A stretch of DNA of 64,000 nt from an uncultured bacterium (GTDB taxonomy: Bacteria; Planctomycetota; SZUA-567; JAKLDR01). The notes below the pieces were generated by a model. The model was given only the letters and a program-made list of their open reading frames with translations, had not been told where the DNA came from and searched no databases. How positions within the stretch are numbered: position 1 is the stretch's first letter; every line of letters starts with the position of its first letter. This document shows positions 3,947 to 41,712 of the stretch, one piece after another. The stretch spans positions 5,608 through 69,607 of the forward strand of contig CALGYR010000006.1 in assembly GCA_937935355.1 (NCBI GenBank), given 5' to 3'. A program made the position numbers and the translations under genes.

Positions 3947-3957
3947 GGAGGACGAAG

Positions 3958-5190: not shown

Positions 5191-5207
5191 GACGGGAGGA
5201 GTCCACG

Positions 5208-7871: not shown

Positions 7872-7963
7872 CCCGGCCGACGGCCTGGAATCCGCCGCCG
7901 GCCCGGCCTAGAATCCTTCCGGCCGCGGCGACCGGCGGCGGCCATGAGGAGGCGCGCCCAGCC

Positions 7964-21935: not shown

Positions 21936-22180
21936 GTCCTGCCTCCTGACGTGGTAGTGAGCTATACACGTTGTTGACGATGTTGTTGCTGGCAAAACCG
22001 TGGATAACTCCAAAGGAGCCGGGGGATGGGGGCCAAGAGCAGTAGAAGCTCACGAGCAGAGGATCCTAGAGCAAAGCCTCTGCCATATATCCGGACAACA
22101 GGGCCGCGTGAGTTTCCAGGTCTGCCCCTCCCTGCACAGGCATCTCGTGCAGGTCTGGGGTGCGCCTACTTTGTCTAAAA

Positions 22181-24562
22181 CTAAAAACCTGTCGTGGCCT
22201 CGGGCAACGCCTTGATTCGGAAATAGTGTGTTCGTGGTGCGGCATTGGGCTCGACCCGCTCTACAAAGCTCTCGACCGTCAGTTGTTGGAGGTATTTGGT
22301 GGCGGTGTTGGGGGAGATCCCGAGTGTGGCAGCCACCTCTGCGCGGGTCATGCTCCGGTGCGCCCGAAAGAGTTCGCGAAGCCGGGCCAACCGACGCATT
22401 GGCGAACGCCCGCAGCGCAGTTCATCATCACCAGGCTTGTCGGCAGAAGGAATCGAAACGGCACTTGGGGTTGCCCAGCCTCTCCCGTCGGTCTTGTTGG
22501 CCTGCGTGGCCAGTGTGGATGCAGTCGTGGGTTGATCCGAACTGGCAGCCATTCCGGCCCCGGCTGCGATTCGGGGATCCAAGTGCATTAGCTCGTAAGC
22601 CGGCTGGTCCGAGTTCATCAGCCGCATGCGTTCCATCTCGTTGCGCAGCTCCCGGACGTTGCCTGGCCAGGAATAGGCCACCAGCGCGGCCCGCAACTCC
22701 GGGCTCATCGTCAGAAGTGCCCCGTCGGTGCGGTGCTCGCCCAAAAAGTGTCCGGCCAGGTTCAGGATGTCCTCGGCACGCTCCCGCAGCGGTGGCACGA
22801 CGATCTCCAGCCGCCTGAGCCGGTAGAGCAGATCCTGGCGGAAGCGCTCTTCGCCGACCATTCGCTCCAGGGGGGCGTTGGTCGCCGCCAAGACCCGGCA
22901 GGACACCTTGCGGCTCGTGGTGCTGCCCACCCGCCGGATCTCGCCAGTTTCGAGCACTCTAAGGAGCGTCACTTGCAGGCGCGGAGATATCTCGCCGATC
23001 TCGTCGAGCAACACTGTACCGGTTCCGGCTGCCTCGAAGAATCCCTGGTGGGCCTTGTCCGCGCCGGTGAAGGCTCCGCGCTCATAGCCGAAGAGCTCGC
23101 TCTCCAACAGCGAGTCGGTGAGCGCCCCGCAGTTGACAGCCACGAAGGGTTCAGCGGCGCGGGGGCCCTCCTCGTGGATGGCCCTGGCCACCAGTTCCTT
23201 ACCGGTGCCGGTTTCGCCGGTGATGAGCACGGGCATGTCGAGCTTCGCGGCGCGGCTGACGGTCTCGCGCAGAGCGACCATGGCGAGGCCTGCACCGATG
23301 AGCCGCGCTGCACCGGACGGCTGTGTCTTGACCGGTTCTGCCGGGACGGGAACCAGGACCGCAACGGAGGCGGCTGGGCTTGGTGTGGTGCCGGCTGGGT
23401 GGGGGGGGAGGGCTGCGCGCATTAGCCTGGCCGAGTCGGCCGCGGACATCTCGCAGGCCATGCGCAGCTCGATGTCCAGTCTTTCCAGGGCGTGGTAGCG
23501 TTCGCAGGCGTGGTAAGCGGTTGAGAAGAGCCTGCCGGCCTCATCACCCCGCCCGGCCAGCAGTTCCGCTCTGGCCAGGTAGAAATCGTCCAGGTAGTGC
23601 GTGTTGCCGCGCTCCCGCCGCAGGCGCAGCAGGCGGCGGGCGGCCTCCCCGCGACGCATGGCTAGCTCGCAACGGACCAGATTGAAGGCTTGGAAGTTCT
23701 GGCCGTACAGAAAGTCGGCGTTGGTCTTGACTGACTCCCGAGCCAACTGCAGGGCGTGCTCGGGCCGGCCGGCCAGCAATTCCCGGGTGGCCGCCAGGCT
23801 CGAGGAGAGGTTCTCGCCTGGCCGGCCCGCCAGCACGTCGGCCAAGGCAAGAAAATCCCGGATCGCCGGCTGGTCCCGGGGCGGCATCTTCTTCAGGCGC
23901 TCCCGGTCGACTTCTCGCAACCTGCCGACCTGTCCGGTATGGACGAAGTGAATAAGATAGATGGCCTCGCGTGTATTGTGTATGTCTTCGTGTTGGGGGC
24001 TGCGAAGGATCCGACAGTACTCGATCTCGATCTCGGCAAAGGTGCCAAAGTTGGCGAACAAGATGGCGAAGTCGCTATAGAACATCTGGTAACGAGGCGA
24101 ATCCTGCGGCACGATTTCGAGGGCCCGGCGGCGGAGTTCCAGGGACTGCTCCTTCTTGCCCACTGTGGCCGCCAACTGCGCCTCGGGAAGGAGCAACATG
24201 GCGATCAGTTCTGCCGGGGTATCGTCCGCAATCAGCAGTTTGGCCCGGTCACTGAGCACAGACGCTTGCGCCAAGCGGTTCCTGTTTATGGAGGTCATGA
24301 GCCAGTAGTGGAAGAAGAGAATCAGGAGGTTCGGGTCGCAGCCTTTGAGATCAAGTGAATCTGCAGTTTTCAGCGCCTCGTCATGCGCCTTCTCGTTACC
24401 GGTTATGGCGCCCGCCATCTCGAGGATGGCGCTGGCAATCGCTCCGTCGTTGCCAGCCTGTGGAGACTCGATTGCTTCACGGAATTCTTTGCGGCCCTTG
24501 AGGAAAGCCGCAACCAAGGGATGCAAAGGACGCGTAGGGTGTTTCTTTCTTGACAATGCCAT
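22181..24562 (-). CDS. Sigma-54-dependent transcriptional activator (enhancer-binding protein) with a ~400-aa N-terminal TPR-like sensory region and no receiver domain
   Basis: AAA+ sigma-54 interaction domain with 'ESELFGYERGAFTGA' (GAFTGA), Walker A 'ITGETGTGKE', 'VLLDEIGEIS'. C-terminal HTH 'TRAEVAATLGISPNTATKYLQQL'. RBS GGGAGG 5 nt before the ATG. Confidence 0.9.
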   Translation of the reverse strand: MALSRKKHPTRPLHPLVAAFLKGRKEFREAIESPQAGNDGAIASAILEMAGAITGNEKAHDEALKTADSLDLKGCDPNLLILFFHYWLMTSINRNRLAQASVLSDRAKLLIADDTPAELIAMLLLPEAQLAATVGKKEQSLELRRRALEIVPQDSPRYQMFYSDFAILFANFGTFAEIEIEYCRILRSPQHEDIHNTREAIYLIHFVHTGQVGRLREVDRERLKKMPPRDQPAIRDFLALADVLAGRPGENLSSSLAATRELLAGRPEHALQLARESVKTNADFLYGQNFQAFNLVRCELAMRRGEAARRLLRLRRERGNTHYLDDFYLARAELLAGRGDEAGRLFSTAYHACERYHALERLDIELRMACEMSAADSARLMRAALPPHPAGTTPSPAASVAVLVPVPAEPVKTQPSGAARLIGAGLAMVALRETVSRAAKLDMPVLITGETGTGKELVARAIHEEGPRAAEPFVAVNCGALTDSLLESELFGYERGAFTGADKAHQGFFEAAGTGTVLLDEIGEISPRLQVTLLRVLETGEIRRVGSTTSRKVSCRVLAATNAPLERMVGEERFRQDLLYRLRRLEIVVPPLRERAEDILNLAGHFLGEHRTDGALLTMSPELRAALVAYSWPGNVRELRNEMERMRLMNSDQPAYELMHLDPRIAAGAGMAASSDQPTTASTLATQANKTDGRGWATPSAVSIPSADKPGDDELRCGRSPMRRLARLRELFRAHRSMTRAEVAATLGISPNTATKYLQQLTVESFVERVEPNAAPRTHYFRIKALPEATTGF

Positions 24563-24719
24563 TTTCCTCCCGGAAACACGTCCTTTGACGCACTCCTATA
24601 GCACAGAATACACCCAATGCGTGCCATTGCAATGCCATAATTCCTAAGATGGCAGTTGAGTTCGACGAGATGTCTATCGTAAGCCACTGTGATTCTGGGT
24701 GATGGGCATTTGCTGGTCT

Positions 24720-24735
24720 TGGAACACCTATTGCT
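24720..24735 (+). promoter_or_regulatory. Sigma-54 (-24/-12) promoter TGGAAC-N5-TTGCT upstream of the radical-SAM gene
   Basis: TGGaaCacctaTTGCt has GG and GC separated by exactly 10 nt (consensus TGGCAC-N5-TTGCW). It lies in a low-GC stretch 22 nt upstream of RBS AGGAGG (24757-24762), divergent from the sigma-54 activator gene. A perfect palindrome CATTGCAATG (24625-24634) lies ~90 bp upstream and is a candidate upstream activator sequence. Confidence 0.55.
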
Positions 24736-24768
24736 TTGTCAAGAACGCTTCGGCCCAGGAGGTGACCG

Positions 24769-26127
24769 TTGAACAGTAAGCTTAACTGCGGAGGGCCAGT
24801 GATGCGCAGCCGCCGCCCGCTGTCCGTGAACAACAGTCTGGTTCACGGCATCTGCAACTGCAACTGCCTGACCTGTGGGGTGAACAAGGCGAGCTACCGC
24901 GGTCCGCGAGAGTATCAGCCCCGGGAGGTCACCGAGCGGCTGATTTCTCGCGTGGAGGAGGCCGCGGCGGCTGGGATCCGGGTGCGCTACATCGCCAACT
25001 CCGGCGACGGCGAGCCGACGTTGCACCCGGAGTTTCGCAGGCGGATGGATCTGTTCGGGGCCATGCTCCGCAACTGGTCAGCGTCGGTACCCGCCCCCGA
25101 GGTCTCGGTGGTCACCAACGGCCAGCGGCTGCTCTCGCCCGGCGTGCTCGATGCCGTGGCCGGGAACCGCCTGACGCTGATCGTCTCCTTCCCGACGACC
25201 GTCGCGGCCGACTACGGGCAGCTGATGTTCTGCCGGCCGGAGCGCGGGGTGGTGACCCTCGAGACGGTCAAGGCTGGCATCCGCCGGGCGATGGAGCTGC
25301 GCGCGGTCGGATCCATCCCGAGGCTGTGCTTCCATCTCTCTCCGCCGGAGCGGGAACTCCTGCGCCGCGGATTCCCGGCGACAATGCAGTTTCTGACCTC
25401 CGAGGCAGCGCGCGCCGGGCTCGGCGAGGTCGAACTGGTGCTCTTCCCGGCGACCTCCAACCGCTCGGGGCTGATCCGCAGCCGCGGCAGTTCGGTCGAC
25501 TTCTACCCGGACCTCTTCCGGGCGTTCAACGGCCGGGCGGTCAACGGCGTGCGCTTGAACATGAGCATCTCCTACCGGCGGTTCTTCCCGGAGGTTTGGG
25601 AGGTGCTCGACCTGGTGCGCAGCTTCAGCCTGCCCTGCATGTGGAACGCCCACCTCTTCATCACCGCCGGCGGCGACTCGATCTGCTGCAACGACCAGGC
25701 GGTGCGCGCCCCGCGCGGCAACGTGCTGACCGATTCGATCGCAAGTCTGATGGTCCGGAAGGAAGCGCACCTGCCCGGCGCGGTCTGCGCCGCGTGTGAT
25801 CAGCGCCCCGACCGGATGCGGGGTGGGCTTGCGGTGACGGTTTTCTCGCTGCTTGCCCGTGCCCGGCTGACCCTGGCGATGATGCGGGCCAGGGCTGGGG
25901 AGGCCCCCACGGGAGAACCGATCCCGGCGGACGCGAAGGAGAACGCCCATGCTCAGGAAAATCTGGTGCTGGATGTTACGGCTCTGCGGATTGCCGCGCG
26001 CCTTGGCAACCAGCCGGCAGCTTTTCTTCCCCGCCGGAACGGTTCACTGAGCGGGGAGCCGGTCGCGCTCCTGCCTGTCGGGGGCACGGGCAGAAAGAGC
26101 CGACTGGGCGTGGCTGACAGCGAGTGA
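24769..26127 (+). CDS. Radical SAM protein with C-terminal auxiliary Cys cluster (SPASM/twitch-like)
   Basis: 'HGICNCNCLTCGVN' (Cx3Cx2C), 'SGDGEPTLHPEF' (GGE-like motif), C-terminal 'LPCMWNAH...SICCNDQ...AVCAACDQRP'. TTG start at 24769 is 6 nt after AGGAGG; alternative ATG 24802 after GGAGGG. Confidence 0.8.
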   Translation: MNSKLNCGGPVMRSRRPLSVNNSLVHGICNCNCLTCGVNKASYRGPREYQPREVTERLISRVEEAAAAGIRVRYIANSGDGEPTLHPEFRRRMDLFGAMLRNWSASVPAPEVSVVTNGQRLLSPGVLDAVAGNRLTLIVSFPTTVAADYGQLMFCRPERGVVTLETVKAGIRRAMELRAVGSIPRLCFHLSPPERELLRRGFPATMQFLTSEAARAGLGEVELVLFPATSNRSGLIRSRGSSVDFYPDLFRAFNGRAVNGVRLNMSISYRRFFPEVWEVLDLVRSFSLPCMWNAHLFITAGGDSICCNDQAVRAPRGNVLTDSIASLMVRKEAHLPGAVCAACDQRPDRMRGGLAVTVFSLLARARLTLAMMRARAGEAPTGEPIPADAKENAHAQENLVLDVTALRIAARLGNQPAAFLPRRNGSLSGEPVALLPVGGTGRKSRLGVADSE

Positions 26128-26157
26128 AGTGCAGGGCTCCACTCAGGAGGGCGGAAA

Positions 26158-26361
26158 ATGATGATCAGCGCGGTGCAGATTGGCATGGTCCCTGCTCTGC
26201 GGAGGATCCTCAGCCTGACGCGGTTTCCGCTGAGGGGCCGAGCAAGGTGGACCGGGAGGCCCAGCGTCGGGGAGGGGCCGCAATGGTCACCCGGCCGGTC
26301 CAAGCGGAGCGAGCTGGCCGCCTGCCTGCCGTGCTACACCTGCGGAGGCAGCCGCAGATGA
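26158..26361 (+). CDS. Candidate 67-aa precursor-like peptide with C-terminal 'AACLPCYTCGGSRR' (Cys-x2-Cys-x2-Cys)
   Basis: ATG 26158 is 7 nt after AGGAGGG. GC3 is ~85% in this frame against ~68% in the overlapping N-extension frame of the next gene. The stop overlaps the ATG of the acyltransferase (ATGA). Same frame and strand as the radical-SAM gene, 30 nt downstream of its stop. Confidence 0.35.
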   Translation: MMISAVQIGMVPALRRILSLTRFPLRGRARWTGRPSVGEGPQWSPGRSKRSELAACLPCYTCGGSRR

Positions 26362-27272
26362 GGACGCTGGAAGAGAAGGTCGGGGCTGTGCCCGGCGAGT
26401 ACCGCTTCGGGGCCGCCGGCGACTACAGCATCCGGGTGGCCGCCTCAATCGAAGACCGGATCAGGGCGTGGAGCTTAGTCTACCGGGTCTACCGGGAGAA
26501 GGAATACGCTGTGCCCAACGAGCAGAGGCTCTGGTACGGTCTGCACGATGCCCTGCCGGGGACGACCACGTTCCTGGTCGAAAAGCGGGCTCAAGACACA
26601 ACGGCGGTCTCTGCCGCACCTTCGACCCTCGGTCTTCAGGCTGCAGCCGCAGTCGTCCCGGTGGCCACCTTGACGCTGGTCTTCGACTCGCCCCTGGGGC
26701 TTCCCGCCGAGGAGGTCTACGGGCCGGAGCTTGGGTCGCTGCGCGCCTGCGGGCGCCGTCCCTGCGAGATCGTCAGCCTGGTGAGCGTTGAGGGCGACCT
26801 CCGGTGCGGCATGGAGATCATGAAGCGCCTCTTCAAGCTCGCCTACCTGGTCGCCAGGCGGCTGACCGACGCCACTGACTTCCTGATCACCGTCAACCCC
26901 CGGCACGTCTCCTTCTACAAACGAATCCTGTTGATGAGCGAGCTTGGCCCCGAGCGGCCCTACGGCAAGGTGGGCGGCGCCCCCGCAGTGCTCCTGGGCC
27001 TGGATCTGCTCGGCGCCGAGGAACTCTACCGGGCGCGCTACGGCGAGGAACAGGGGAGCTTCTTCCGCTTCTTCGTCGACCAGGTCACCGAGCCGGAGAT
27101 CGTCAGCAGACTCTCCCGGAGCCGGCGGCCGCTCGGCGAGGCGGACCTGCGCCGATTCTTCGTCGAGGAGCGGCCGCTGCTCTTCGGGGCGGGTGGCCGG
27201 CACGGTCCAAATGCGCCCGCCGCGGCCCTGTCGGGCACAGCTGTGCGCACCTCGGATTACGCGCAGGTCTAG
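26358..27272 (+). CDS. FeeM/N-acyl amino-acid-synthase-like GNAT-fold acyltransferase (Acetyltransf_5; resembles PEP-CTERM/exosortase-associated acyltransferase family)
   Basis: 'IRAWSLVYRVYREKEYAVPNEQRLWYGLHDALPGTTTFLV' and 'CEIVSLVSVEGDLR...LFKLAYLVARRLTDATDFLITVNPRHVSFYKRILLMSELG' match the long-chain N-acyl amino acid synthase pattern (R.RY.VF.EE..W…E.DE.D…H.LV…EI.RF.V…L…HG..Y.L…P.H..FY.R). ATG 26358 is preceded by GGAGG; the track's 78-aa N-extension is rejected. Confidence 0.6.
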   Translation: MRTLEEKVGAVPGEYRFGAAGDYSIRVAASIEDRIRAWSLVYRVYREKEYAVPNEQRLWYGLHDALPGTTTFLVEKRAQDTTAVSAAPSTLGLQAAAAVVPVATLTLVFDSPLGLPAEEVYGPELGSLRACGRRPCEIVSLVSVEGDLRCGMEIMKRLFKLAYLVARRLTDATDFLITVNPRHVSFYKRILLMSELGPERPYGKVGGAPAVLLGLDLLGAEELYRARYGEEQGSFFRFFVDQVTEPEIVSRLSRSRRPLGEADLRRFFVEERPLLFGAGGRHGPNAPAAALSGTAVRTSDYAQV

Positions 27273-27387
27273 AGCGCGTAGCGCTGCCGTTCCGCAGGCT
27301 GCGTTGGGGGGCGAAGCAGCCAACCGAGGATCGAGGGGCGGGCAATCTTGCTGGCACCGCTAACGGTTACGAAGGGAGCGCAGTCTC

Positions 27388-30300
27388 ATGCACATCCATT
27401 TCGGAGGCAATGTGGGACATACATTCGTGGCGCTTTTGGCCGCTCTGTGGATTGCAGCCTCCTCGGCGTCTTCGCAGGAAGCCACAGATGTGCCCTCCGG
27501 CCCTGTGCGCGTGGTGGCGCTGAAGATGGACGCCGAGAACACGGGGCTGGACCGAAGGGCGCTCTTGCGAGAGAAGCTGGCTGCAGTACTCGCCGGGATG
27601 GGTGCTGGCAGTGTGGACTTGGTGGTGGTTCCCGAATACACCTTCTATCGGGGATACGAGAGCGATCCGGTTAAGATCCTGCCGGACGGCGCCAACTTTC
27701 GGGTGGTGTCGACCGGGACGGCCAAGAGCAACGAGATCGCGGCCGCCGTGTCGGAAGCGCAAGCCTGGGCGCAGGCCAATAACGCGAATATGATACTGGG
27801 GACCGTAGCTGATCTGGTAACCCCGCAGGACGATCCCGCGCTGCCGGCAAGCGTGACCTTCAACACCCAACTGGTTATCGATCGCCTCGGGCGAATTGTG
27901 GGCTACCGAAGAAAAGTGACTGAATGGATATCCAGTCTTGGTTTGAGTTCAACGGTCGCCAAGCAGAAGGCCCTGCAGTCCCTGCGCACATGGACGCTAT
28001 CCACCAGGGGCGGCATGGATTTCGTGGTATTCCCGATCATCTGCGATGAGGAGGCCGATTGCGATCTGCTGGCCAGATCCGCGGCCTTCAACGCGGATCT
28101 GGTGATCAATTCCGAATGCGTTCTGGAGACCTGGGTTTCTCGCGAGATCGAAAAGATCACCAAGAGCGTTCAGGACGGCGCTTGGACCCCAACCGTGCCG
28201 GGGGCCAGATTCTTCAGGGATGTGTATGTCAAGAGGTACGTGGTAAGCCGTAATGCGGTCAAACCCGGCGGTTGGCTGGTGGCGGCCAACAGCTATGGCA
28301 GCACAGGGGGGATGATCGAACTGAACGTTCCGCCCGGACCGTTGGCGTCTCTCAATATTACCGATCACTATGTGCACGGCGTGATCCAATTCGCCAGCCG
28401 AAGCGAACCGACCAACAAGATGCCGATAATCACGGCTGCTCCCTCGGCCGTCCCGAGTACGGTTGTTCTGCCGTCTCATGCGACAGTGAACGTGGCGATC
28501 AGCGACCCGGACAACGGCCCATGGCCTCTTTACGTCACGTGGTCCAAGGTGAGCGGCCTAGGATCTGTTACCTTCTCTCCGAACGGGACGGCCAGCGCAG
28601 CTTCCAGCTCAGCCGTCTTCAGCCTGGCAGGCCCCTACATTCTTCGAGCCGAAATCTCGGACGGCATGGACGAGGTGAGCCAGGATCTTGCCGTGCTCGT
28701 AACCGATGACAATCGGTCCGTCAATAAAGCGCCCGCCGTGAGCGCGGGGCCCGATTGTACGGTAACCTCGCCGTCGAAGGCCAGTCTGAAGGGCATGGTT
28801 ATTGATGACGGTCTGCCCAATCCGCCTGGGACGGTTACGGTCAAGTGGAGCCACGTCTACAACCCAAGCACACTGATCCTAAGCAGTCCTAATACTTTGG
28901 CCACGTTGGTGACGGCCAGCAAACCTGGCACCTATATTGTGCGACTGACGGCAAGCGACGGGGCCTTGTCTGCCTCCGAGACTGTGGCTGTCACGTTCGA
29001 CCCGATACCCGAGAACCAACCGCCGCTGGCCAACGCCCAGAGCGTGACGACCGTCGAGGATGTCGCCAAGGCGATCACGCTGGTCGGCACGGATGCCGAT
29101 GGCGACGCGCTGACCTATACGGTAGTGACAAACCCCGCGCACGGAAAGCTTTCGGAGGCGGGCGCGGTCCGGACCTACACGCCGGCAGCGGACTGGAGCG
29201 GCACTGACAGCTTCACATTCAAGGTCAACGACGGGAAGGCCGACTCCAACGTCGCGACGGTCTCCATCGCGGTAACGGCGGCGAACGACCAGCCCATCGT
29301 CTCCTCCTTCTCGCCGGGCAGCTTGGTGACGGTGCCGGCGGGCACCACGCAGGCCTTCAGCGTGGATGCCTGGGACGTCGACGGCGACGCGCTCTCCTAC
29401 GCCTGGAAGCTCGACGGCGTCGCCGTGCCGGTGACGCTGAGTTCCATGAACTACAGCCCCGTTGCCGCCGACGCCGGGGCGCACGTCATCGCCGTGACCG
29501 TCTCCGATGGCAAGGGCGGCGCGGCCAGCAAGAGCTGGGACGTGAACGTGATTGCCGGCAGCCAGGCCCCGGCGGTGGCGCTCACCGCCCCGGCCGCGGG
29601 GGCCGTCTATGCGGCCGGCTCCTCGATCGTCCTCGCCGCCACGGCCTCGGACGCGGACGGGAAGGTCGTCAAGGTCGAGTTCTACCAGGGCGCGACCAAG
29701 CTCGGGGAGGACCTGGCCGCCTCCTACGGCCTCACCTGGAAGAGCGTGCCAACGGGCAGCTACACGCTCACGGCCAAGGCCTTTGACGACCAGGGGCTCT
29801 CGACGGTCTCGGCGCCGGTAACGGTCAAGGTGATCCCGACGGTAACCGTGGCGGTCTCCGACTCGGTCGGCTCGGAGCCCGGCACCGACACCATGAAGTT
29901 CAAAGTCTCGCGCGCGAGCTCCACGGCCTCGGCGCTGACCGTCTACTACACCGTAGGCGGCACGGCCACTAGCGGCACCGATTACGCCGCGCTCCCCGGC
30001 TCGGTCTCGATCCCGGCCGGCGCGAGCTACGCCTACGTGACGGTGACGCCGAAGGACGACGCGGCCATCGAGGGCAAGGAGACGGTGACTTTCACCGTCT
30101 CGGCCAACTCCGCCTACAAGCTCGGCTCGACGGTCACCGGCACGGCCTGGCTGCTCGACAACGAGCTGCCGGTGGTGACGACCTCGGCCTACGACGCCTA
30201 CGCCTTCGAGGGCAGCGCCACCGACACGGCCAGGTTCAAGGTCTCGCGCACGGGCTCGACCGCCGCGGCGCTGACGGTGAAGTACGCCATGTCGGGCACG

Positions 30301-31518
30301 GCGACCAACGGCACCGACTACGCGGGCCTCTCCGGGTCGGCGGTGATCCCGGCCGGCTCGAGCTACCTCTACGTCACCGTCGCATCCAAGGCCGACAGCC
30401 TGGTCGAGGGCCGCGAGTACTTGAAGCTCTCGCTGGCCGCCTCGAGCGCCTACCAGATCCACAGCTCGACCGCCGCGACGGCCTACATTGTGGACGACGA
30501 CTTCCCGGCGGTGAAGATCGCGGCGACCGACGCGGTGGCGGCCGAGGGCGGCTCGGACACCGGCACATTCACGATCACCCGGACCGGTCCGCTCTCGAGC
30601 GCGCTGGTCGTCTACCTCAAGACCGGGGGCTCGGCCGTCAAGGGCGCCGACTACGTCGCGCCGCCGGCCTCGGTGACGATACCCGCCGGGGCGGCCTCGG
30701 TCACGGTGAAGCTGACCGCCATCAACGACTCCCTCGCCGAGGGCAAGGAGACGGCGACGCTCTACCTCGTCGCCAACGCCGCCTACCAGCTCTCGACGAG
30801 CACGTACGCGACGGTGACGATCTACGACGACGAGAAGCCGGAGGTGACGCTCAAGGTCACCGACAGCCGGGCCTACGAGCAGGGGTGTGACCCGGCGGTC
30901 TTCACGGCCAGCTGCTTCCCGGCGGCCAAGGCGAACCTTTCCGTGGCCTACACGGTCTCGGGCACGGCCACCAACGGCACGGACTACCAGAAGCTCTCCG
31001 GCACGGCCACCATCCCGGCCGGCGGCACCTCGGCGACGATCACGGTCAAGCCGATAGACGACGCCGTGGCCGAGGCCGGCAGCTACGAGACGGTGGGGGT
31101 GGCACTGGCGGCCGGGAGCGGCTACGCGCTGGGCTACTACAAGTCGGGCACGGCCTACCTCTACGACAACGAGCCGACGATGAGCGTCTCGGTCTACGAC
31201 TCCTCGGCGGCGGAGACCCTGTCCGGGGCCGTGGCCGAGACCGGGCGGTTCAAGCTCTATCGCTCGGGCGGGGACGTGACCAAGTCCCTGACCGTGGGCT
31301 ACACGATGAGCGGCACGGCGACGAACGGCACCGACTACGCGAAGCTCTCCGGCTCGGCGGCCATCCCCGCCGGCTCGACCTACGTGTACGTCTACGTCAC
31401 GCCGGTGAACGACGCGCTCAAGGAGGGCAGCGAGACGGCCACCCTCACCATCGCGGCGAGCACCGCCTACAAGATCGGCACGGCCAGCGCGACGGTGACC
31501 ATCGCGGATAACGATTAG
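27388..31518 (+). CDS. Large secreted protein (1376 aa): N-terminal carbon-nitrogen hydrolase (nitrilase-superfamily) domain, Ig/cadherin-like domains, 7 Calx-beta repeats
   Basis: Signal peptide 'VALLAALWIAASSASS'. CN-hydrolase catalytic-triad context 'LVVVPEYTF' (Glu), 'VGYRRKVTEW' (Lys), 'VVFPIICDEEADCDL' (Cys). Repeated 'GTATNGTDY..LSG...IPAG.S...V.V.P..D...EG.ET' (Calx-beta) x7; 'ANDQPIVSSFSP...YAWKLDG' cadherin-like. Confidence 0.8.
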   Translation: MHIHFGGNVGHTFVALLAALWIAASSASSQEATDVPSGPVRVVALKMDAENTGLDRRALLREKLAAVLAGMGAGSVDLVVVPEYTFYRGYESDPVKILPDGANFRVVSTGTAKSNEIAAAVSEAQAWAQANNANMILGTVADLVTPQDDPALPASVTFNTQLVIDRLGRIVGYRRKVTEWISSLGLSSTVAKQKALQSLRTWTLSTRGGMDFVVFPIICDEEADCDLLARSAAFNADLVINSECVLETWVSREIEKITKSVQDGAWTPTVPGARFFRDVYVKRYVVSRNAVKPGGWLVAANSYGSTGGMIELNVPPGPLASLNITDHYVHGVIQFASRSEPTNKMPIITAAPSAVPSTVVLPSHATVNVAISDPDNGPWPLYVTWSKVSGLGSVTFSPNGTASAASSSAVFSLAGPYILRAEISDGMDEVSQDLAVLVTDDNRSVNKAPAVSAGPDCTVTSPSKASLKGMVIDDGLPNPPGTVTVKWSHVYNPSTLILSSPNTLATLVTASKPGTYIVRLTASDGALSASETVAVTFDPIPENQPPLANAQSVTTVEDVAKAITLVGTDADGDALTYTVVTNPAHGKLSEAGAVRTYTPAADWSGTDSFTFKVNDGKADSNVATVSIAVTAANDQPIVSSFSPGSLVTVPAGTTQAFSVDAWDVDGDALSYAWKLDGVAVPVTLSSMNYSPVAADAGAHVIAVTVSDGKGGAASKSWDVNVIAGSQAPAVALTAPAAGAVYAAGSSIVLAATASDADGKVVKVEFYQGATKLGEDLAASYGLTWKSVPTGSYTLTAKAFDDQGLSTVSAPVTVKVIPTVTVAVSDSVGSEPGTDTMKFKVSRASSTASALTVYYTVGGTATSGTDYAALPGSVSIPAGASYAYVTVTPKDDAAIEGKETVTFTVSANSAYKLGSTVTGTAWLLDNELPVVTTSAYDAYAFEGSATDTARFKVSRTGSTAAALTVKYAMSGTATNGTDYAGLSGSAVIPAGSSYLYVTVASKADSLVEGREYLKLSLAASSAYQIHSSTAATAYIVDDDFPAVKIAATDAVAAEGGSDTGTFTITRTGPLSSALVVYLKTGGSAVKGADYVAPPASVTIPAGAASVTVKLTAINDSLAEGKETATLYLVANAAYQLSTSTYATVTIYDDEKPEVTLKVTDSRAYEQGCDPAVFTASCFPAAKANLSVAYTVSGTATNGTDYQKLSGTATIPAGGTSATITVKPIDDAVAEAGSYETVGVALAAGSGYALGYYKSGTAYLYDNEPTMSVSVYDSSAAETLSGAVAETGRFKLYRSGGDVTKSLTVGYTMSGTATNGTDYAKLSGSAAIPAGSTYVYVYVTPVNDALKEGSETATLTIAASTAYKIGTASATVTIADND

Positions 31519-31679: not shown

Positions 31680-34319
31680 TCACTGCCCGTCCTTCATCTC
31701 CTCCATTATCGCGGTCGCGCGGTCGAACCGGAGCGCCCAGACCTTGCGCGCGCTGGAGTTGTTGAGCAGCACCAGCTTCAGCTTCGGGTCGTAGGCCAGG
31801 GCGTCGGAGTAGCTGAACGGTTTGTCCTTATGCTCGACCTCCTTGCCGCCGTCGACCCACTTGAGATCCAGCCAGTAGAACTTGCCGTCGTTGAGGTCCC
31901 ATGCGTAGCTGCGGACCTTGCCATCCGGGCGCTTGAGCGGGCACATGCCGAGAACCAGATCGGCCTCCGGCAGATATACGGCCTCGCCGCCGCGGAAGAT
32001 CCACTTGTCCAAGGCCTTGGGCTTGGCGAAGGCGATCTTCTCGCTGGTGCCCTTGGCGATGTCGTACCGGAAGATCTCCTCGGCGTAGGTCATCCACAGG
32101 CAGTCGCGCTTGGAGTCGTGGATCACGCAGGGCCCGTCGCACCAGCCGACGTCGCCCTTGGGCCTGGGCCCGTTCCAGGGCAGCTTCCGCCAGGCGCCGG
32201 CCCTGGCGTCGAAGCGGAAGAGCCCCTTGTCCGACCAGGTGACCGCGCCGGCCGGCGTGGCCTTGATGTGGCTGTGCATCACCCCGCGATGCTCCAGCCC
32301 GGGCATGGGCACCGGCTCCCACTCGCGGACCAGCGGGTCGTAGACGCGCTCGAAGTAGAACATCTTGCGGGCGGTCGGGTCGTAGCTGTAGCCCTTGTAG
32401 GCGTGCATGGGCACGTGGGCGCGGTCGTGGAACGACAGCGGCACCGGCTGGCTGGCGTAGACGTTCTCGATGGGATCGTCGGGGTGATAGCCGATGGTCC
32501 AGAAGCCGCCGAGCACGCTGAAGTGGGCCACGTCGTTCTCGTGGCTGGTGGCGTGCCCGCCGCCCCAGAGCAGGAACTGGTGGCGGTCGGTGTCGTAGGC
32601 GCTGGTGCCCCAGCGGTTGGTGGCGCCCGGCGCGTACCTGGGGAACTTGAACGCGGTCCACTGGTTGGCGGGCAGGCCGTCGATGAACTGCCTGGCCGTC
32701 GCAGCCGCGTCGGCCGGGGCGGCCGCCTCCCAGGCGGCCGGATCGATCCGGTTGAAGTCGTACGCCCCGGCAGACGCGCCGCGCTCGGCGGTGCCGGCGG
32801 CATCGGCCCTGGCCGCGTCCACCCGGCAGGCCCAGGTCTGGAGGGCGTCGTGGCCGACGGTGGTCACGCAGACCAGAACGTCGTCCGGCCCCACCGCGCC
32901 TGGCTGGATGCCCATGCGGTCCGCCGCCGGGCCGGCCCCGCCGGAGGGCAGGTGAGCCAGCAGCTGCCAGGCGTTGGCGTCCGGGTCGTAGGTCCAGATC
33001 TCCTGGTCGAGCGGCCCGCGGCTGTAGCCGCCGGCCAGCACCACCCTGCCGGCCGTGGGCAGCCAGCCCAGGACGTGGCCCGCGCGCGGCGAGGGGCATT
33101 TCTCCGGGAACTTCTGCTCCCAGGTGCGCGTAGCGCAGTCGTAGAGCCAGGTGTCGGACAGCGTCCGGTCGAGCCCGTCGCCGCCGAAGAGCACGATCTT
33201 TTTCCGGACCGGGTCGAAGACGGTCTGCGACCGCGCCCGGCCGGGCGGCTCGGGCGAGAGCGCGTCGACGGCCTGCTCGAAGATGACCCGGGCGGCGCGG
33301 ACCGCGGCGATCTTTTCCGGGGTTATCGCACCGGAGAGCGTCGGGCCGGCCGCCTTGACCGCGGAAGAGGCGGCGGTCAGACGCTTGGCGGCCATCTCCC
33401 CGGCCGGCTTCTCGCTCCCGGCCAGACCCGCAGCCGCCACCTCGCCGGCGAACTTCCCGGTTGCAGCGGCCAGCTTGGCGGCCTCGGCGACGAGGTCCAC
33501 CTTGGCCTCCTCCTCGGTCTCGGCCACGGCGTGGCGGCTGGAGCAGCGGCCGAGCAGCCTCTTGGCCTCCCAGCGCAGGTCCTTCGATTTCGCGAAGAGC
33601 TCCTTGAGCTTGGCCGAGCCGAATTCGAGCTTCCGCCACTCGTTCTTCTCGATGCTGTAAGTCCAGGTGGAGACGTCGGCGCTGCCGCCGCCCCCGCCGG
33701 TGTGGAGGATCTCCTTGTTCACCGGGTCGTGGCACATCGAGCCCCAGACCAGGCAATTCCCGCGCGGCGCGGTCTTGCGCTCACCCCAGGTCCGCCTGGC
33801 GGTGTCGTAGACGAACATCTCCTTGCCGGGCGACAGGTAGATCCGGCCGTCGTCCGGGACATGACACCAGGCGTAGCTGTTGGTGACCACGGGCGCCCAC
33901 TGTCCGCCGGCGACCAGGCGCAGGTGCTCGCCGTCCTTGTAGAACGGGCCGCCGCCCAGGCCGTTGCCGTGCCTCTCGCGGTCCTTGGCATACTGCTCGC
34001 CCAGCGGTCCGGACTCCGGGCGGTCCTGTTCCAGGCCTGCCGGGTAGGCGTTGAACCACCGGCCGGAGGCCAGGTCGAACTCCTCGGTGTCGTAGTGGCG
34101 GGCGATCCCGCCGTAGCCCCGGCCCTGCGTGCCGCCGGTCAATACGAACCGTTTGATCCCGGAGGCGTAGACGAACAGCGGCTGCTTGCGGCCGCCGGTC
34201 TTCGACTCGGCCAGCTTCACCCAGGCGTTGGCCGGGGCATCCTTGAGCGCGGACGGCTCGGCAGCGGTCAGAGGACTGCCAAGCCAGAGCGCAATCGAAA
34301 TGCCGATCATCAGACGCAT
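31680..34319 (-). CDS. Large secreted Kelch-like beta-propeller protein (family member; two propeller-like halves)
   Basis: ATG 34319 with GGGAGGACGAAG RBS; signal peptide 'MRLMIGISIALWLGSPLTAAEP'. Repeated 'W.YD....W' Kelch-like blades. Confidence 0.75.
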   Translation of the reverse strand: MRLMIGISIALWLGSPLTAAEPSALKDAPANAWVKLAESKTGGRKQPLFVYASGIKRFVLTGGTQGRGYGGIARHYDTEEFDLASGRWFNAYPAGLEQDRPESGPLGEQYAKDRERHGNGLGGGPFYKDGEHLRLVAGGQWAPVVTNSYAWCHVPDDGRIYLSPGKEMFVYDTARRTWGERKTAPRGNCLVWGSMCHDPVNKEILHTGGGGGSADVSTWTYSIEKNEWRKLEFGSAKLKELFAKSKDLRWEAKRLLGRCSSRHAVAETEEEAKVDLVAEAAKLAAATGKFAGEVAAAGLAGSEKPAGEMAAKRLTAASSAVKAAGPTLSGAITPEKIAAVRAARVIFEQAVDALSPEPPGRARSQTVFDPVRKKIVLFGGDGLDRTLSDTWLYDCATRTWEQKFPEKCPSPRAGHVLGWLPTAGRVVLAGGYSRGPLDQEIWTYDPDANAWQLLAHLPSGGAGPAADRMGIQPGAVGPDDVLVCVTTVGHDALQTWACRVDAARADAAGTAERGASAGAYDFNRIDPAAWEAAAPADAAATARQFIDGLPANQWTAFKFPRYAPGATNRWGTSAYDTDRHQFLLWGGGHATSHENDVAHFSVLGGFWTIGYHPDDPIENVYASQPVPLSFHDRAHVPMHAYKGYSYDPTARKMFYFERVYDPLVREWEPVPMPGLEHRGVMHSHIKATPAGAVTWSDKGLFRFDARAGAWRKLPWNGPRPKGDVGWCDGPCVIHDSKRDCLWMTYAEEIFRYDIAKGTSEKIAFAKPKALDKWIFRGGEAVYLPEADLVLGMCPLKRPDGKVRSYAWDLNDGKFYWLDLKWVDGGKEVEHKDKPFSYSDALAYDPKLKLVLLNNSSARKVWALRFDRATAIMEEMKDGQ

Positions 34320-34369
34320 CTTCGTCCTCCCTCGAGTTGACATGGCAGCCCTCTTCTCTTGCGTCTCAT

Positions 34370-36331
34370 CTACCTTGCGCCCGCACCCGGCCCGGCGCCT
34401 ATCTCGGCGCAGAGCGAAAACAGTTTGTCGTCATCCTCCTGCCAGGAGGGGAGGAAGGCCGCCGCCCTTCCGGGCCCGGGGGCGTTCCCGCCACTGGCGC
34501 CAGGCATGATCTTGAGATTCCGGGCTGCACGCTTCGCCAGGAAGTCCTGGCACCTGGCGGCCAGCGCCGCGTCGAGCTTTCCCCCATCGACGGCCTTGAG
34601 CAGGCAGACCAGGGCCTCGACGACCTGCATGCCCTCCGCGAACGCCTCCAGCCTCTCGGTGCCCAGCGGCCCGCCGGGCCCCGGGGCGACGAAGCTCACG
34701 ATGCTCTCGTTCATGCCCCCGCCTTCGTCAGAAAAGTTGATGGGCCGCTTCGTGTCCGGCATGAACCAGTAATCGGCGCCGCTCTGGCCGAGCCCGGCCC
34801 AGCCGGTGTGGAGGATGATCTCGGGATTGAAGCGATGGCCGAAGAGGCCGTCGTGCTGGCGCAGGATGCAGGCCCCGGCGCCGTAACGCGACCACACCCA
34901 GACGTTGCGCCCGCCCGTCTTCCAGGGCATGGCGTACTCCGGCTTGCGCGGGCTGCCCACCCCCCAGACGTGCTCACGGAAGGCGACCGGGACCGATTGG
35001 CCATCGACAGTCTTGTAGCTGGAGGGGTTCTTGTGGGACGTGCTAAACCAAGGCAGTTTGGGCGCCGCCTTCAGGAAGGCTGTCGCCGTCTCCTTGGTGG
35101 GATAGGCGTCCCCGGCGGTTCCGATCGCGGCCACATCCAGCCAGCCGCGTTTCTCGAGCCGTTTCGAGACCTCGGCCAGGACCGGCCGCCAGAAATCCGC
35201 GCTCGCGTCCGTGCCGTAGAACGGCTGGCTCATCGGCTCGACTCTGCCGGTGGCCGGGTCGAGCCGGCTCACCTTCACCGGGTTCTCCCCCGGGGCCTTG
35301 ACCAGAGGCGCCCCCGGCCCGATGCCACCATCGGCCTTGGGACGGAAGACGTTCAGAAGGAGCGCCCGGGGCTTGCCGAGCTTCTTCTCGTAGAGGTCCA
35401 GGTACCTGTCGAAGGGCGCGAAGTCGTGTTCGTACTTGCCGTTACCCTTGTCGATCCACCTGACCATCGACTCGGCGTTGCCCGCATTGAAGGCATTGGC
35501 GATCAGGTGCACCGGGCACAGACCGTTGCCCGTCGGCCTGATGAGGTCGAGGACCTGGCCCATCAGTTCGAAGTGCCGCTCCGACCACAGGGGTGCGCCG
35601 TAGCGCCGGGCGCTTGACTCCTGCGACTGCCAGATCTGGGGCCGGCAGGTCAGGTCCTTGAGGTCCGGCATGGTCCAGCCGTAGACCTTGATGCCCAGCG
35701 GCACCTTGGTGGCGGCCAGCCCCTCGGCGGAAACGGTCACCTCGGCGCGATAGACGCCGGGAGCGGCATCGGCCGGCACCAGCACGGTGAGCCAGACCGG
35801 CTGCATGGCGCCCACCGGCACCGGCGGGTCGCTGTACTTCTGGCTGGGGAACCCGGGACGCACGCTGCGAACCGGGACCTCGGCCGGCGCCTCGGTCAGC
35901 AGGACATCGAAGCGGTTGTCGGGGACGAAGCGCGAGCTCTTGCTGGACGACTCGGCCACTGCTGGGAAGCGCACCAACACCCGCCCGGACGGGATCGTGC
36001 CCTTGCCGTCTTCCCGCGCCAGATCGCCGACCGTGGTCCTGATGTTCCGGATCGCCTTGGCCGAAGCCAGAACCACCTGGCCGCTGGCGCGGCCGTTGCG
36101 CGGGGCGATCAGGTCGATCTCCAGCTTCTTTTCGCCCTGCGCCGGAGTGTCGAAGACGGTCAGGTCCCGCGGCGGCTGGCAGACCCAGACCTGCACGCCG
36201 TCCGGGCGCTGCGGCGCCGCGCTCGGCATCTCCGGAGCCGGAGCCGGCGGGCGTTCGCCGGCCTGAGCTGCGCCGAACGACGCCAGGCTGCAGATCAGAA
36301 CGCTTGCGGTAAGGCTGCTCGTCAGACGCAT
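34370..36331 (-). CDS. Secreted DUF4091-like glycoside-hydrolase-like protein (paralog of 5208..7871)
   Basis: ATG 36331 with GGGAGGACGAAG; signal peptide 'MRLTSSLTASVLICSLASFGAAQA'. Shares the 'QPVWLTV.VPADA.PG.Y...' block and 'FDRYLDL' with the 5208 gene. The 104-aa N-extension in the track is rejected. Confidence 0.7.
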   Translation of the reverse strand: MRLTSSLTASVLICSLASFGAAQAGERPPAPAPEMPSAAPQRPDGVQVWVCQPPRDLTVFDTPAQGEKKLEIDLIAPRNGRASGQVVLASAKAIRNIRTTVGDLAREDGKGTIPSGRVLVRFPAVAESSSKSSRFVPDNRFDVLLTEAPAEVPVRSVRPGFPSQKYSDPPVPVGAMQPVWLTVLVPADAAPGVYRAEVTVSAEGLAATKVPLGIKVYGWTMPDLKDLTCRPQIWQSQESSARRYGAPLWSERHFELMGQVLDLIRPTGNGLCPVHLIANAFNAGNAESMVRWIDKGNGKYEHDFAPFDRYLDLYEKKLGKPRALLLNVFRPKADGGIGPGAPLVKAPGENPVKVSRLDPATGRVEPMSQPFYGTDASADFWRPVLAEVSKRLEKRGWLDVAAIGTAGDAYPTKETATAFLKAAPKLPWFSTSHKNPSSYKTVDGQSVPVAFREHVWGVGSPRKPEYAMPWKTGGRNVWVWSRYGAGACILRQHDGLFGHRFNPEIILHTGWAGLGQSGADYWFMPDTKRPINFSDEGGGMNESIVSFVAPGPGGPLGTERLEAFAEGMQVVEALVCLLKAVDGGKLDAALAARCQDFLAKRAARNLKIMPGASGGNAPGPGRAAAFLPSWQEDDDKLFSLCAEIGAGPGAGAR

Positions 36332-36360
36332 CTTCGTCCTCCCGTCAGAACCCTCGGATC

Positions 36361-37722: not shown

Positions 37723-37810
37723 CTTTCCCTTCTCCTTGCTTTGGCAAAAGCACATCCCCTGCCTCCAGCAGGCCGCTTTTAACGGCCTGCCAGTTCTTCT
37801 GGCGCCTTCT

Positions 37811-39169: not shown

Positions 39170-39191
39170 GAGTCTTTCTCCCCTCTCTGGT

Positions 39192-41473: not shown

Positions 41474-41712
41474 GTCACTTTCAGCACACTGCGAAATACA
41501 CCGGACTGAGCTCGGAGTTGTCGAAATTCCTTGAAACTCGCCGGCGGCAGTTCCACTAACCGAGCTGTTGAATCACACTTAGACAGTGCATATCAAGCAA
41601 TTGGCGCTTCCCATTGGCGCGGAGCCGGTGTATTCTGCCCCAGTCGTCTCCGCAGCTGCACACAGATGTGCAATCTGCGCGACGGGGATGAGTTGAGGAA
41701 CTGGAGACAACC

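Follow-up and report, generated by a model that had tools for sequence, protein, structure and literature searches.

We propose that the gene at 27388–31518 on the forward strand of the window, the whole 64-kb stretch of DNA analysed here, probably encodes a Sec-exported modular protein, in which a nitrilase-fold enzyme is carried on an Ig/Calx-beta stalk and acts as a stand-alone exoenzyme encoded behind a FeeM operon. The open reading frame (1376 aa) has an ATG start, a TAG stop, and a good Shine-Dalgarno sequence, AAGGGAG, at 27372–27378, 9 nt 5' of the ATG, and is a genuine gene. A hydropathy scan of the protein reveals an N-terminal hydrophobic segment (residues 9–27) followed by small residues, SSASS, which fits the expectation for a Sec signal peptide. 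Specifically, the putative signal peptide spans residues 1–29 (27388–27474, forward strand) and has the hydrophobic core FVALLAALWIAA. The scan detects neither a lipobox Cys nor a transmembrane segment beyond residues 9–27; a second hydropathy peak, at residues 63–82, corresponds to a buried helix/strand of the nitrilase fold. No C-terminal anchor, sorting or secretion signal is recognised in the 1376 residues. The N-termini of homologues P0001–P0005 are equivalent to that of the window protein, and signal-peptide-like N-termini are also found in relatives. The protein is thus probably exported via Sec, consistent with the preliminary description of this DNA, which had called it secreted.

Residues ~35–340 (27490–28407, forward strand) form an intact but very divergent nitrilase-superfamily (C-N hydrolase) domain, as indicated by profile, Pfam, AlphaFold, and Foldseek analyses. 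The window protein scores 18.2 bits over its full length and 21.8 bits as an isolated domain against PF00795 (CN_hydrolase), both below the Pfam gathering score of 23.2 bits, so the assignment is carried by the fold and by the family as a whole. PF00795 is matched by 28 of 30 family members at E ≤ 1 (best 7.6e-12), and a scan of ten further clade members put seven above the cut-off, for example with 39.3 and 43.1 bits. The sub-threshold score of the window protein therefore reflects divergence, not absence of the domain. A profile of 30 homologues searched against the PDB retrieved nitrilase-superfamily chains only, led by Nit3 (1f89, 3.7e-9) and aliphatic amidase (2uxy, 3.1e-7), then nitrilase and formamidase. 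The AlphaFold model, calculated from a 30-sequence alignment (pLDDT 91.4, pTM 0.91), is predicted to adopt the four-layer alpha-beta-beta-alpha sandwich, and its best 50 Foldseek matches are all nitrilase-superfamily members. Thus, the CN-hydrolase call of the preliminary description stands on family and fold evidence, while the PF00795 scan of the protein itself falls short of the gathering score.

The Glu-Lys-Cys contexts reported in the preliminary description are all present. Glu83 (codon 27634–27636) lies in DLVVVPEY, Lys176 (27913–27915) in GYRRKV, and the predicted Cys, Cys219 (28042–28044), in FPIICDEE, all on the forward strand. Glu83, Lys176, and Cys219 are kept in 59, 52, and 57 of 62 relatives, respectively, and the family motifs read DL[IV]V[TV]PEY, GTV[AP]E, [KHR]RK, and PIIC[GA]E. 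In the HMM alignment, the family Glu, Lys, and Cys coincide with the motifs PE, RK, and IICDD in 2uxy, which correspond to Glu59, Lys134, and Cys166 of that enzyme; the alignment with Nit3 gives the same result. In the predicted model, the Cys is located between the preceding beta-strand and the following helix, namely at the nucleophile-elbow position. These features suggest that the domain is catalytic. Further acidic residues are Asp142, Glu179, and Glu221. Asp142 stands where 50 of 62 relatives have the almost invariant Glu of GTVAE, and in place of the family motif SEREGD the window protein has a degenerate version, SECVLE; with these departures from the consensus, activity could be altered.

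The remainder of the protein consists of Ig-like and Calx-beta domains, both of which the preliminary description had recognised. Two Ig-like/PKD-type domains (28435–28995, forward strand) follow the enzyme, one at residues 350–445 with a weak Cadherin_4 match and one at residues 453–536 of the K319L-like PKD type. Together with the hydrolase domain, they constitute a module in common with a 531-aa Vitiosangium homologue. Three more Ig-like domains (29014–29775, forward strand) match Big_9 (residues 543–627, 74.5 bits), Big_9/PKD (633–720, 31.8/27.3 bits), and Big_7 (728–796, 68.3 bits). Residues ~800–1376 (29785–31515, forward strand) comprise five Calx-beta domains, not the seven counted previously. 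The whole protein matches PF03160 with E 2e-44, and five separate segments score 34.9, 30.3, 37.7, 29.8, and 39.4 bits, all above the gathering threshold of 27 bits. The motif G[TA]DY likewise occurs five times, at 863, 975, 1086, 1197, and 1314. Motifs of the form D..(A/L)..EG.E are visible in the repeats, and each repeat closes with an acidic run (LLDNE, IVDDD, IYDDE, LYDNE, IADND), which suggests that the repeats bind Ca2+. No DNA-level tandem repeat was found in the Calx-beta region.

Judged by its sequences, the clade to which the domain belongs is a rare, extracytoplasmic, and so far unnamed branch of the nitrilase superfamily, with 94 cluster representatives among 1.84 billion proteins. 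A Cys pair is kept in 38–39 of 62 relatives. The fusion partners are all extracellular modules, namely Laminin_G_3, MopE, PQQ propeller, CarboxypepD_reg, Big_2, dockerin/cohesin, He_PIG, and TSP_3. About ten members are named or titled, from Myxococcota, Bdellovibrionota/Bacteriovoracaceae, Omnitrophota, Pacearchaeota, Woesearchaeota, and Kiritimatiellae, and most members are metagenome proteins.

The hydrolase gene lies behind a group of genes on the same strand. The stretch 24769–27272, previously described as a single acyltransferase gene, in fact contains a radical-SAM gene, a possible small ORF, and a FeeM-family gene. The radical-SAM gene (24769–26127; NCBI start 24802) encodes a CX3CX2C motif and a C-terminal Cys cluster, scores 28.2 bits against PF04055, slightly below the cut-off of 29.5, and has AGGAGG 7 nt 5' of its TTG start at 24769. 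In the related locus L018, a radical-SAM homologue (57% identity) is located directly upstream of FeeM. The possible 67-aa ORF (26158–26361, forward strand; C-terminus ...CLPCYTCGGSRR), called in the NCBI record and unconfirmed, has AGGAGG 8 nt upstream and a stop that overlaps the FeeM ATG. Its GC3 is 0.85, compared with 0.68 for the alternative 5' extension of FeeM, and no homologue was found in related loci. The FeeM-family gene (26358–27272, forward strand; 304 aa) belongs to the N-acyl amino acid synthase family, as the preliminary description had it for this neighbour, with 135.5 bits and E 1.8e-39 against PF21926 (gathering threshold 27 bits). Its homologues (n = 29 besides its own record) are mostly 260–340 aa long, with a range of 218–337, which fits the 26358 start.

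Divergently transcribed from these genes is a sigma-54-dependent activator (bEBP) of 793 aa (22181–24562, reverse strand; Sigma54_activat E 9e-64) with a ~415-aa N-terminal region without assigned function. A full-length homologue (43% identity) is divergent to the radical-SAM/FeeM operon in locus L013, and a partial homologue (51% identity) is on the L018 contig. The element TGGAACACCTATTGCT (24720–24735, forward strand), 33 nt 5' of the radical-SAM TTG start, has GG/GC in −24/−12 register and one mismatch to TGGCAC-N5-TTGCW. Only three such one-mismatch matches occur in the 64-kb window, and a search of L013 for an equivalent found none. The motif match suggests that TGGAACACCTATTGCT functions as a sigma-54 promoter. 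The gap between FeeM and the hydrolase gene (27273–27387, forward strand) is 115 nt long (116 bp in the preliminary description). It contains no terminator-like and no promoter-like site, the only sigma-54-like promoter found being that upstream of the first operon gene, and shuffled versions of it fold just as well (z = +0.5). Because the gap lacks a terminator, co-transcription of the hydrolase gene with the upstream operon is possible, as had been suggested before. That the hydrolase gene comes last in an apparently sigma-54-driven FeeM operon hints, if weakly, at a functional link in this genome.

This arrangement underlies the model of linked amide/acyl chemistry in the preliminary description. 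Spelled out, the model has the exported domain act on the product of the adjacent FeeM-family enzyme: at the cell surface it would either hydrolyse the secreted product, N-acyl amino acids or else a peptide bearing an N-acyl group, or transfer the acyl group to another amine, and the four genes would form one sigma-54-controlled unit. The model draws on the common strand, the short gap without a terminator-like site, the sigma-54-like promoter upstream of the first gene only, and the solid FeeM family membership of the neighbour. Nitrilase-superfamily enzymes form acyl-thioester intermediates, and some of them, such as Lnt and amidases, transfer acyl groups. However, when the four proteins were compared with 19 loci by tblastn, none of eight distinct loci of hydrolase relatives proved to carry a homologue of FeeM or of the radical-SAM protein, and none of six distinct loci of FeeM homologues carried the hydrolase. 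The conserved partners of FeeM are instead radical-SAM enzymes, a ketoacyl synthase or an FAD_binding_4 oxidase, and the activator/radical-SAM/FeeM module is present in L013 and L018 without the hydrolase. Moreover, the hydrolase-PKD part of the gene has a foreign composition: GC is ~59% across 27600–29000 (hydrolase and PKD part) against 68–69%, and GC3 of the CN-hydrolase and PKD module is 0.73 against 0.86, with 0.97 in the Calx-beta part. A functional link between FeeM and the hydrolase is thus not supported by any related genome examined, and we consider the model distinctly improbable. No neighbour is shared across the eight hydrolase loci, which, together with the distinct composition of the CN-hydrolase and PKD module, makes a stand-alone exoenzyme the most likely role of the gene product.

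The target of such an enzyme could also lie on other cells. An enzyme used as a weapon or for scavenging, with the stalk bound to a foreign surface or polymer, would deamidate or de-N-acylate envelope components, or, in the manner of vanin and biotinidase, free vitamins or amines from amide conjugates. Such a role would suit the presence of the clade in predatory or episymbiotic lineages, the named members listed above, the lectin-like or adhesion modules among the fusion partners, and the richness of the window in genes for exo-polymer degradation (sulfatase, GH123, GH4, Kelch). The taxonomic pattern, however, consists of only those ten or so named sequences, no toxin-immunity pair or secretion-system gene adjoins any member examined, and vanin is no closer than cytoplasmic amidases and is absent from the sequence-profile search, so this reading is unlikely. 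Very improbable is a soluble, exported relative of Lnt that moves an acyl chain from a lipid donor to an amine on a protein or on a molecule of the cell surface. The extracytoplasmic location, the C-x-E after the nucleophile, and weak TIGR00546 matches in 21 of 30 family members (best 8e-7) are as expected for an Lnt-type N-acyltransferase, but the window protein has no membrane domain and no TIGR00546 match, no Lnt chain appears in the profile-versus-PDB search at E ≤ 10, and hhalign against E. coli Lnt, a weak test with a single-sequence template, gave nothing. The label "Lnt-like" given in the preliminary description is therefore not supported, Lnt being the weakest structural match. Scarcely credible is an inactive nitrilase-like binding module within a mere large adhesin. 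Asp142, the departure from SEREGD, and the predominance of adhesin-type repeats point in this direction, but Glu to Asp is a conservative change, and the triad is kept in the window protein and in most relatives across bacteria and archaea, which argues for selection on catalysis.

In the preferred reading, that of a stand-alone exoenzyme on a stalk, the ~29-residue signal peptide would be removed on export and the N-terminal ~305 residues would then fold as the nitrilase-superfamily sandwich. The catalytic steps are drawn by analogy with every characterised superfamily member. Specifically, Cys219 would attack a non-peptide amide at its carbonyl carbon, or else a nitrile, with Glu83 as general base and Lys176 stabilising the tetrahedral intermediate; a thioester acyl-enzyme would form, and ammonia or an amine would leave. 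An extra acidic residue, Glu179 and/or Glu221, may help place the attacking water, which would release the acid (amidase); less likely, the acyl group would go to an amine acceptor. The ten modules behind the enzyme, five Ig-like and five of the Calx-beta type, would make up an extended stalk or binding array, probably stiffened by Ca2+, that would keep the enzyme at or close to an extracellular surface or polymer. In its general picture, a repeat stalk that carries an exported enzyme for amide hydrolysis or acyl transfer, the preliminary description was right, with an intact triad, a signal-peptide-like start, and the modules behind. The hydrolase gene would have landed behind the sigma-54-controlled radical-SAM/(67-aa ORF)/FeeM operon and stayed outside the conserved chemistry of that module. 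Read-through from the operon is probable because of the same strand, the 115-nt gap free of terminator-like or promoter-like sites, and the sigma-54-like promoter near the divergent activator.

Among known systems, the characterised amidases and Nit proteins of PF00795 share their Glu-Lys-Cys motifs with the window domain, down to order and secondary-structure position, so the same covalent thioester mechanism is expected. The comparators were yeast Nit3 (1f89), mouse Nit2 (2w1v), the S. aureus C-N hydrolase (3p8k), AmiE (2uxy, 2plq), AmiF (5g3o, 2e2k), and the Nit6803 nitrilase (3wuy). Identity with these proteins is only 10–16%, the common core leaves out ~100 of the 327 residues of the window domain, and SEREGD and IQxG are motifs peculiar to the clade. 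Whereas the Nit/amidase comparators are cytoplasmic, single-domain oligomeric enzymes, the window protein is probably exported and is fused to ten extracellular modules. All characterised branches lie at about the same distance from the domain, and homology therefore gives no basis for assigning it a substrate. Vanin-1/biotinidase (4cyf) is eukaryotic, unlike the window protein, and is outside the family sequence-profile matches at E ≤ 10; by its Z value, vanin-1 lies no nearer to the domain than the cytoplasmic amidases do. The accessory part of vanin/biotinidase is a single 'base' domain, in contrast to the Ig/Calx-beta repeats of the window protein. Lnt (TIGR00546; 8aq2) resembles the window protein in having its catalytic domain outside the cytoplasm, the Glu-Lys-Cys triad, and a C-x-E motif after the nucleophile, but it has a polytopic membrane domain, which the window protein lacks. 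The Big_9/Big_7/PKD and Calx-beta repeat proteins of the 'tandem-95 repeat protein' type (NF012211; 70.6 bits for the window protein, below the cut-off of 90) have the same kinds of modules, with the acidic motifs usual in Ca2+-binding Calx-beta domains. Compared with them, the window protein shows no recognisable signal for secretion or sorting at its C-terminus, and has a putative Sec-type signal peptide and an N-terminal enzyme domain.

The hydrolase gene occupies positions 27388-31518 of the forward strand (1376 codons, ATG start, TAG stop), in exact agreement with the preliminary description. AAGGGAG lies 9 nt upstream of the ATG, and the overall GC3 of 0.86 is the same as that of the neighbouring genes (0.86-0.87). 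A minus-strand ORF within the gene (28879-30462, 527 aa) is spurious, because the plus frame gives strong domain matches there, with GC3 of 0.82-0.97. In a hydropathy scan, the protein has a single N-terminal hydrophobic segment (residues 9-27) followed by SSASS, and it lacks both a lipobox cysteine and any other membrane segment. The N-terminus looks like a Sec signal peptide, and the protein is probably exported.

The domain layout was determined by Pfam scans of the whole protein and of ten sub-segments. A weak CN_hydrolase match (residues ~35-340) is followed by five Ig-like domains, namely a weak domain of the Cadherin_4 type (350-445), a K319L-like PKD domain (453-536), Big_9 (543-627), Big_9/PKD (633-720), and Big_7 (728-796), and then by five Calx-beta domains (~800-1376). 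All five Calx-beta segments exceed the Pfam cut-off (29.8-39.4 bits), each contains one G[TA]DY motif (at 863, 975, 1086, 1197, and 1314), and each is closed by an acidic run; by these scores and motifs, the seven repeats initially counted are five. The Calx-beta region contains no tandem repeat at the DNA level, and its repeats are not recent DNA duplications. The last repeat is also the end of the protein, with no recognisable sorting signal at the C-terminus. The protein is likely to bind Ca2+, and the Ig-like and Calx-beta domains would form a stalk of roughly ten domains that is probably Ca2+-stiffened.

The window protein itself scores below the PF00795 cut-off of 23.2 bits (18.2 bits at full length, 21.8 bits for the isolated domain), and a search of the single domain sequence against the PDB returned only a match to aliphatic amidase with an E value of 0.052. 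A word-indexed search of 5.8 billion proteins retrieved one homologue, a 531-aa Vitiosangium protein with 50% identity; repeated with a 30-sequence profile, it gave four matches. When 1.84 billion cluster representatives were searched exhaustively with HMMER, 94 relatives emerged at E<=1e-3, with 23 reaching E<=1e-30, which marks the clade as rare. Searched against the PDB, the 30-sequence profile matches only nitrilase-superfamily chains, including yeast Nit3 (3.7e-9), the aliphatic amidase AmiE (3.1e-7), nitrilase, formamidase, D-carbamoylase, Nta1, and beta-ureidopropionase. PF00795 is matched by 28/30 clade members (best 7.6e-12), and its threshold is passed by seven of the ten other members scanned. 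The AlphaFold2 model has a pLDDT of 91.4 and a pTM of 0.91, a quality that depended on the homologues from the exhaustive search (pLDDT 45 with a two-sequence alignment), and the top 50 PDB matches of the model in Foldseek are all superfamily members.

Among 62 aligned relatives, Glu83 is conserved in 59, Lys176 in 52, and Cys219 in 57, within the motifs DL[IV]V[TV]PEY, [KHR]RK, and PIIC[GA]E, respectively. In the HMM alignment, these residues coincide with the motifs PE, RK, and IICDD in Nit3 and AmiE; in the model, Cys219 lies after a strand and before a helix. Because profile searches, PF00795 matches, structure prediction, Foldseek, conservation, and alignment agree, a nitrilase-superfamily fold with a Glu-Lys-Cys triad is confirmed at the level of sequence and model. 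The C-N hydrolase assignment of the preliminary description is thus borne out for fold and triad, whereas a PF00795 match of the window protein above the cut-off is not. Two departures from the clade consensus are found in the window protein. Asp142 replaces a Glu present in 50/62 relatives, and the clade motif SEREGD is degenerate (SECVLE).

A sharp compositional step divides the hydrolase gene, between 27600-29000 and 29200-31400. The first ~1.5 kb, which codes for the hydrolase and two PKD domains, has 59% GC versus 68-69% around it; the Big/Calx-beta part has about 69% GC, with GC3 of 0.82-0.97. GC3 climbs along the gene, with values of 0.73 for the hydrolase, 0.82 for the Ig-like region, and 0.97 for the Calx-beta region. 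The low-GC stretch has exactly the architecture of the Vitiosangium homologue (hydrolase plus two PKD domains). This step in GC and GC3 suggests a mosaic gene, in which an acquired enzymatic head, arriving separately, would have been fused to a native repeat array.

The relatives of the hydrolase domain have signal-peptide-like N-termini and are fused to PKD/Big, Laminin_G_3, MopE motifs, PQQ propellers, CarboxypepD_reg, Big_2, dockerin/cohesin, He_PIG, and TSP_3, all of which are extracellular modules. Many also carry paired cysteines. One pair, at the alignment columns of window residues 99 and 104, is present in 38-39 of the 62 members and lies in the hairpin following the catalytic Glu, and many members have a second in an insertion following the catalytic Lys. 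Such pairs fit disulfide-stabilised secreted proteins. The window's own subgroup (Myxococcota/Kiritimatiellae-like) is without them. Named members come from Myxococcota, Kiritimatiellae, Bdellovibrionota/Bacteriovoracaceae, Omnitrophota, Pacearchaeota, and Woesearchaeota, and are annotated at source as 'hypothetical', 'predicted amidohydrolase', or 'nitrilase-related'. A limited literature search found no description of an exported nitrilase-superfamily clade. The Calx-beta and Ig-like repeats are themselves ordinary, and the superfamily of the domain is already known; the unusual part is a rare, secreted, scaffold-fused clade for which Pfam and NCBIfam hold no specific model.

Upstream, the stretch 24769-27272, initially described as one acyltransferase gene, comprises a radical-SAM gene, a possible small ORF, and a FeeM-family gene, all on the forward strand. 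The radical-SAM gene (24769 or 24802 to 26127) encodes a CX3CX2C motif and a C-terminal Cys cluster, and scores 28.2 bits against PF04055, just below the cut-off. The possible 67-aa ORF (26158-26361) has its own AGGAGG and a GC3 of 0.85, and its stop overlaps the ATG of the FeeM-family gene (ATGA; 26358-27272, PF21926 135.5 bits). Its C-terminus is Cys-rich (CLPCYTCGGSRR). In view of the Cys-cluster radical-SAM enzyme and the GNAT-like FeeM protein encoded on either side, the ORF could specify the precursor of a modified or acylated peptide; related FeeM loci yielded no homologue of it.

A sigma-54 activator gene (22181-24562, reverse strand) is divergently transcribed from the radical-SAM and FeeM genes. 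A sigma-54 promoter-like element with one mismatch, TGGAACACCTATTGCT (24720-24735, forward strand), precedes the radical-SAM start by 33 nt. Only three such one-mismatch matches occur in the whole window, and two of them lie between the activator gene and its neighbours on either side. The second flanking match (22070-22085, reverse strand) is upstream of a GntR/LacI-type regulator gene (20778-22013). The corresponding intergenic stretch of L013, a locus encoding a FeeM homologue, yielded no sigma-54-like element. The arrangement itself recurs: a divergent sigma-54 activator with a large N-terminal region of no assigned function, one or more radical-SAM enzymes, and a FeeM-family protein are found together in the window (22181-27272), in L013 (2457-11145), where the module includes a ketoacyl synthase and two radical-SAM genes of the B12-binding type, and in a further FeeM-homologue locus, L018, with identities to the window proteins of 57% (radical-SAM), 56% (FeeM), and 51% (activator). 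Other FeeM homologues pair with a FAD_binding_4 oxidase, sometimes with ACP and KAS genes (L016, L019, and L020). A literature search on FeeM with radical SAM found nothing relevant. The module resembles a biosynthetic cassette for a lipid or lipopeptide, of an uncharacterised kind.

The FeeM and hydrolase genes are separated by 115 nt. Between 27272 and 27388 there is no terminator-like site of the kind that would have counted against the preliminary description, no unusual structure (z = +0.5), and no credible promoter, and read-through transcription into the hydrolase gene is therefore plausible; the two genes may well be co-transcribed. An internal sigma-54 promoter was considered and rejected, since TGGCAC is present but the -12 element reads ACGG, not TTGC. 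Downstream, a Kelch protein gene (31680-34343) lies on the opposite strand, one of at least five encoding Kelch-repeat proteins in the window. The regions 2629-9301 and 31680-43047 are dense in glycan-degradation and related genes, including two GH123-like genes (5028-7871 and 34370-36643), a sulfatase gene (7964-9301), and a GH4 gene (41713-43047), and two regulators combining a GntR HTH with a LacI-type binding domain are encoded at 20778-22013 and 40325-41473. This gene content suggests a sulfated-glycan-degrading bacterium, perhaps one of the PVC group.

The window protein is most likely an exported enzyme with standard nitrilase-superfamily chemistry. In the proposed mechanism, Cys219 would act as the nucleophile and form a thioester acyl-enzyme, Glu83 would serve as the general base, Lys176 would stabilise the oxyanion, and Glu179 and/or Glu221 would be the auxiliary acidic residue. 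Held on its stalk, the enzyme would act on an extracytoplasmic non-peptide amide. Of four alternatives, the most probable narrows this proposal rather than opposing it: the enzyme would be directed at other cells or polymers, as an editor of cell surfaces or a scavenger, and the taxonomic evidence for such a role is thin. Ranked next is the linked amide/acyl chemistry of the preliminary description, with the hydrolase as a partner of the neighbouring N-acyl amino acid synthase (FeeM) gene. By tblastn and gene tables, no FeeM, radical-SAM, or activator homologue is present at any of eight distinct hydrolase-relative loci (L002/L008, L003/L004/L007, L005, L006, L009, L010, L011, and L012), of which L005 and L009 (about 4 kb) and L006 (about 6 kb) are short contigs that say little on neighbours, and no hydrolase is present at any of six distinct FeeM-homologue loci (L013, L014/L015, L016/L017, L018, L019, and L020). 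Comparison thus speaks against a functional unit and lends the partnership no support, and adjacency here is no evidence of shared chemistry. A search for conserved neighbours around the distant clade members (L010-L012) turned up unrelated genes only (PD-(D/E)XK nuclease, AIR synthase, enolase, DUF2779, and a radical-SAM gene that is likewise unrelated). In L012 (7635-10640), from a Woesearchaeota MAG, a 115-aa ORF and then a radical-SAM gene (PF04055 E 2.8e-17) come after the clade member; the product of this radical-SAM gene has no detectable relation to the window's radical-SAM protein, and this adjacency, the only other one seen, is probably coincidence.

Ranked third is an acyltransferase of the apolipoprotein N-acyltransferase (Lnt) type. 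Weak matches to the Lnt model TIGR00546 in 21/30 relatives (best 8e-7) are the only pointer in this direction, and formamidase (19/30) and nitrilase (17/30) models are matched about as often. The window protein lacks the membrane domain of Lnt and has no TIGR00546 match in NCBIfam, and Lnt is absent from the matches of the 30-sequence profile in the PDB even at E<=10; the label 'Lnt-like' is thus unsupported. Alignment of the family profile to E. coli Lnt with hhalign gave no match, a result made uninformative by the single-sequence template. Last of the four is a dead binding domain.

Returning to the exported amidase, a joint reading is possible, and we hold it only tentatively, as rather unlikely in its entirety. 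The clade would be an undescribed extracytoplasmic nitrilase branch, patchy in bacteria and DPANN archaea and possibly favouring predatory or episymbiotic lineages, in which a Cys-Glu-Lys amidase on interchangeable adhesion or lectin scaffolds edits amides of other cells' envelopes or of extracellular polymers. Here, horizontal transfer would have brought in a CN-hydrolase+PKD module, which became joined to a native Big/Calx-beta array downstream of a sigma-54-controlled radical-SAM/peptide/FeeM operon; outside the cell, the module could conceivably process an acylated product of that operon.

The window protein is a concrete, testable candidate enzyme and overturns nothing. Apart from the repeat count, the structure of the upstream genes, the label 'Lnt-like', and the proposed link to the synthase, the preliminary description largely holds. 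The clade, secreted, with its triad kept on varied scaffolds in bacteria and archaea, points to unrecognised extracellular amide chemistry. Should the substrate prove to be a signalling amide or one of the cell envelope, the clade would form a new class of surface-editing enzymes; with a simple nutrient amide, it would add modestly to the superfamily. To our knowledge, the nitrilase-superfamily enzymes characterised in bacteria are metabolic amidases and nitrilases of the cytoplasm; the known exception outside it is the membrane enzyme Lnt.
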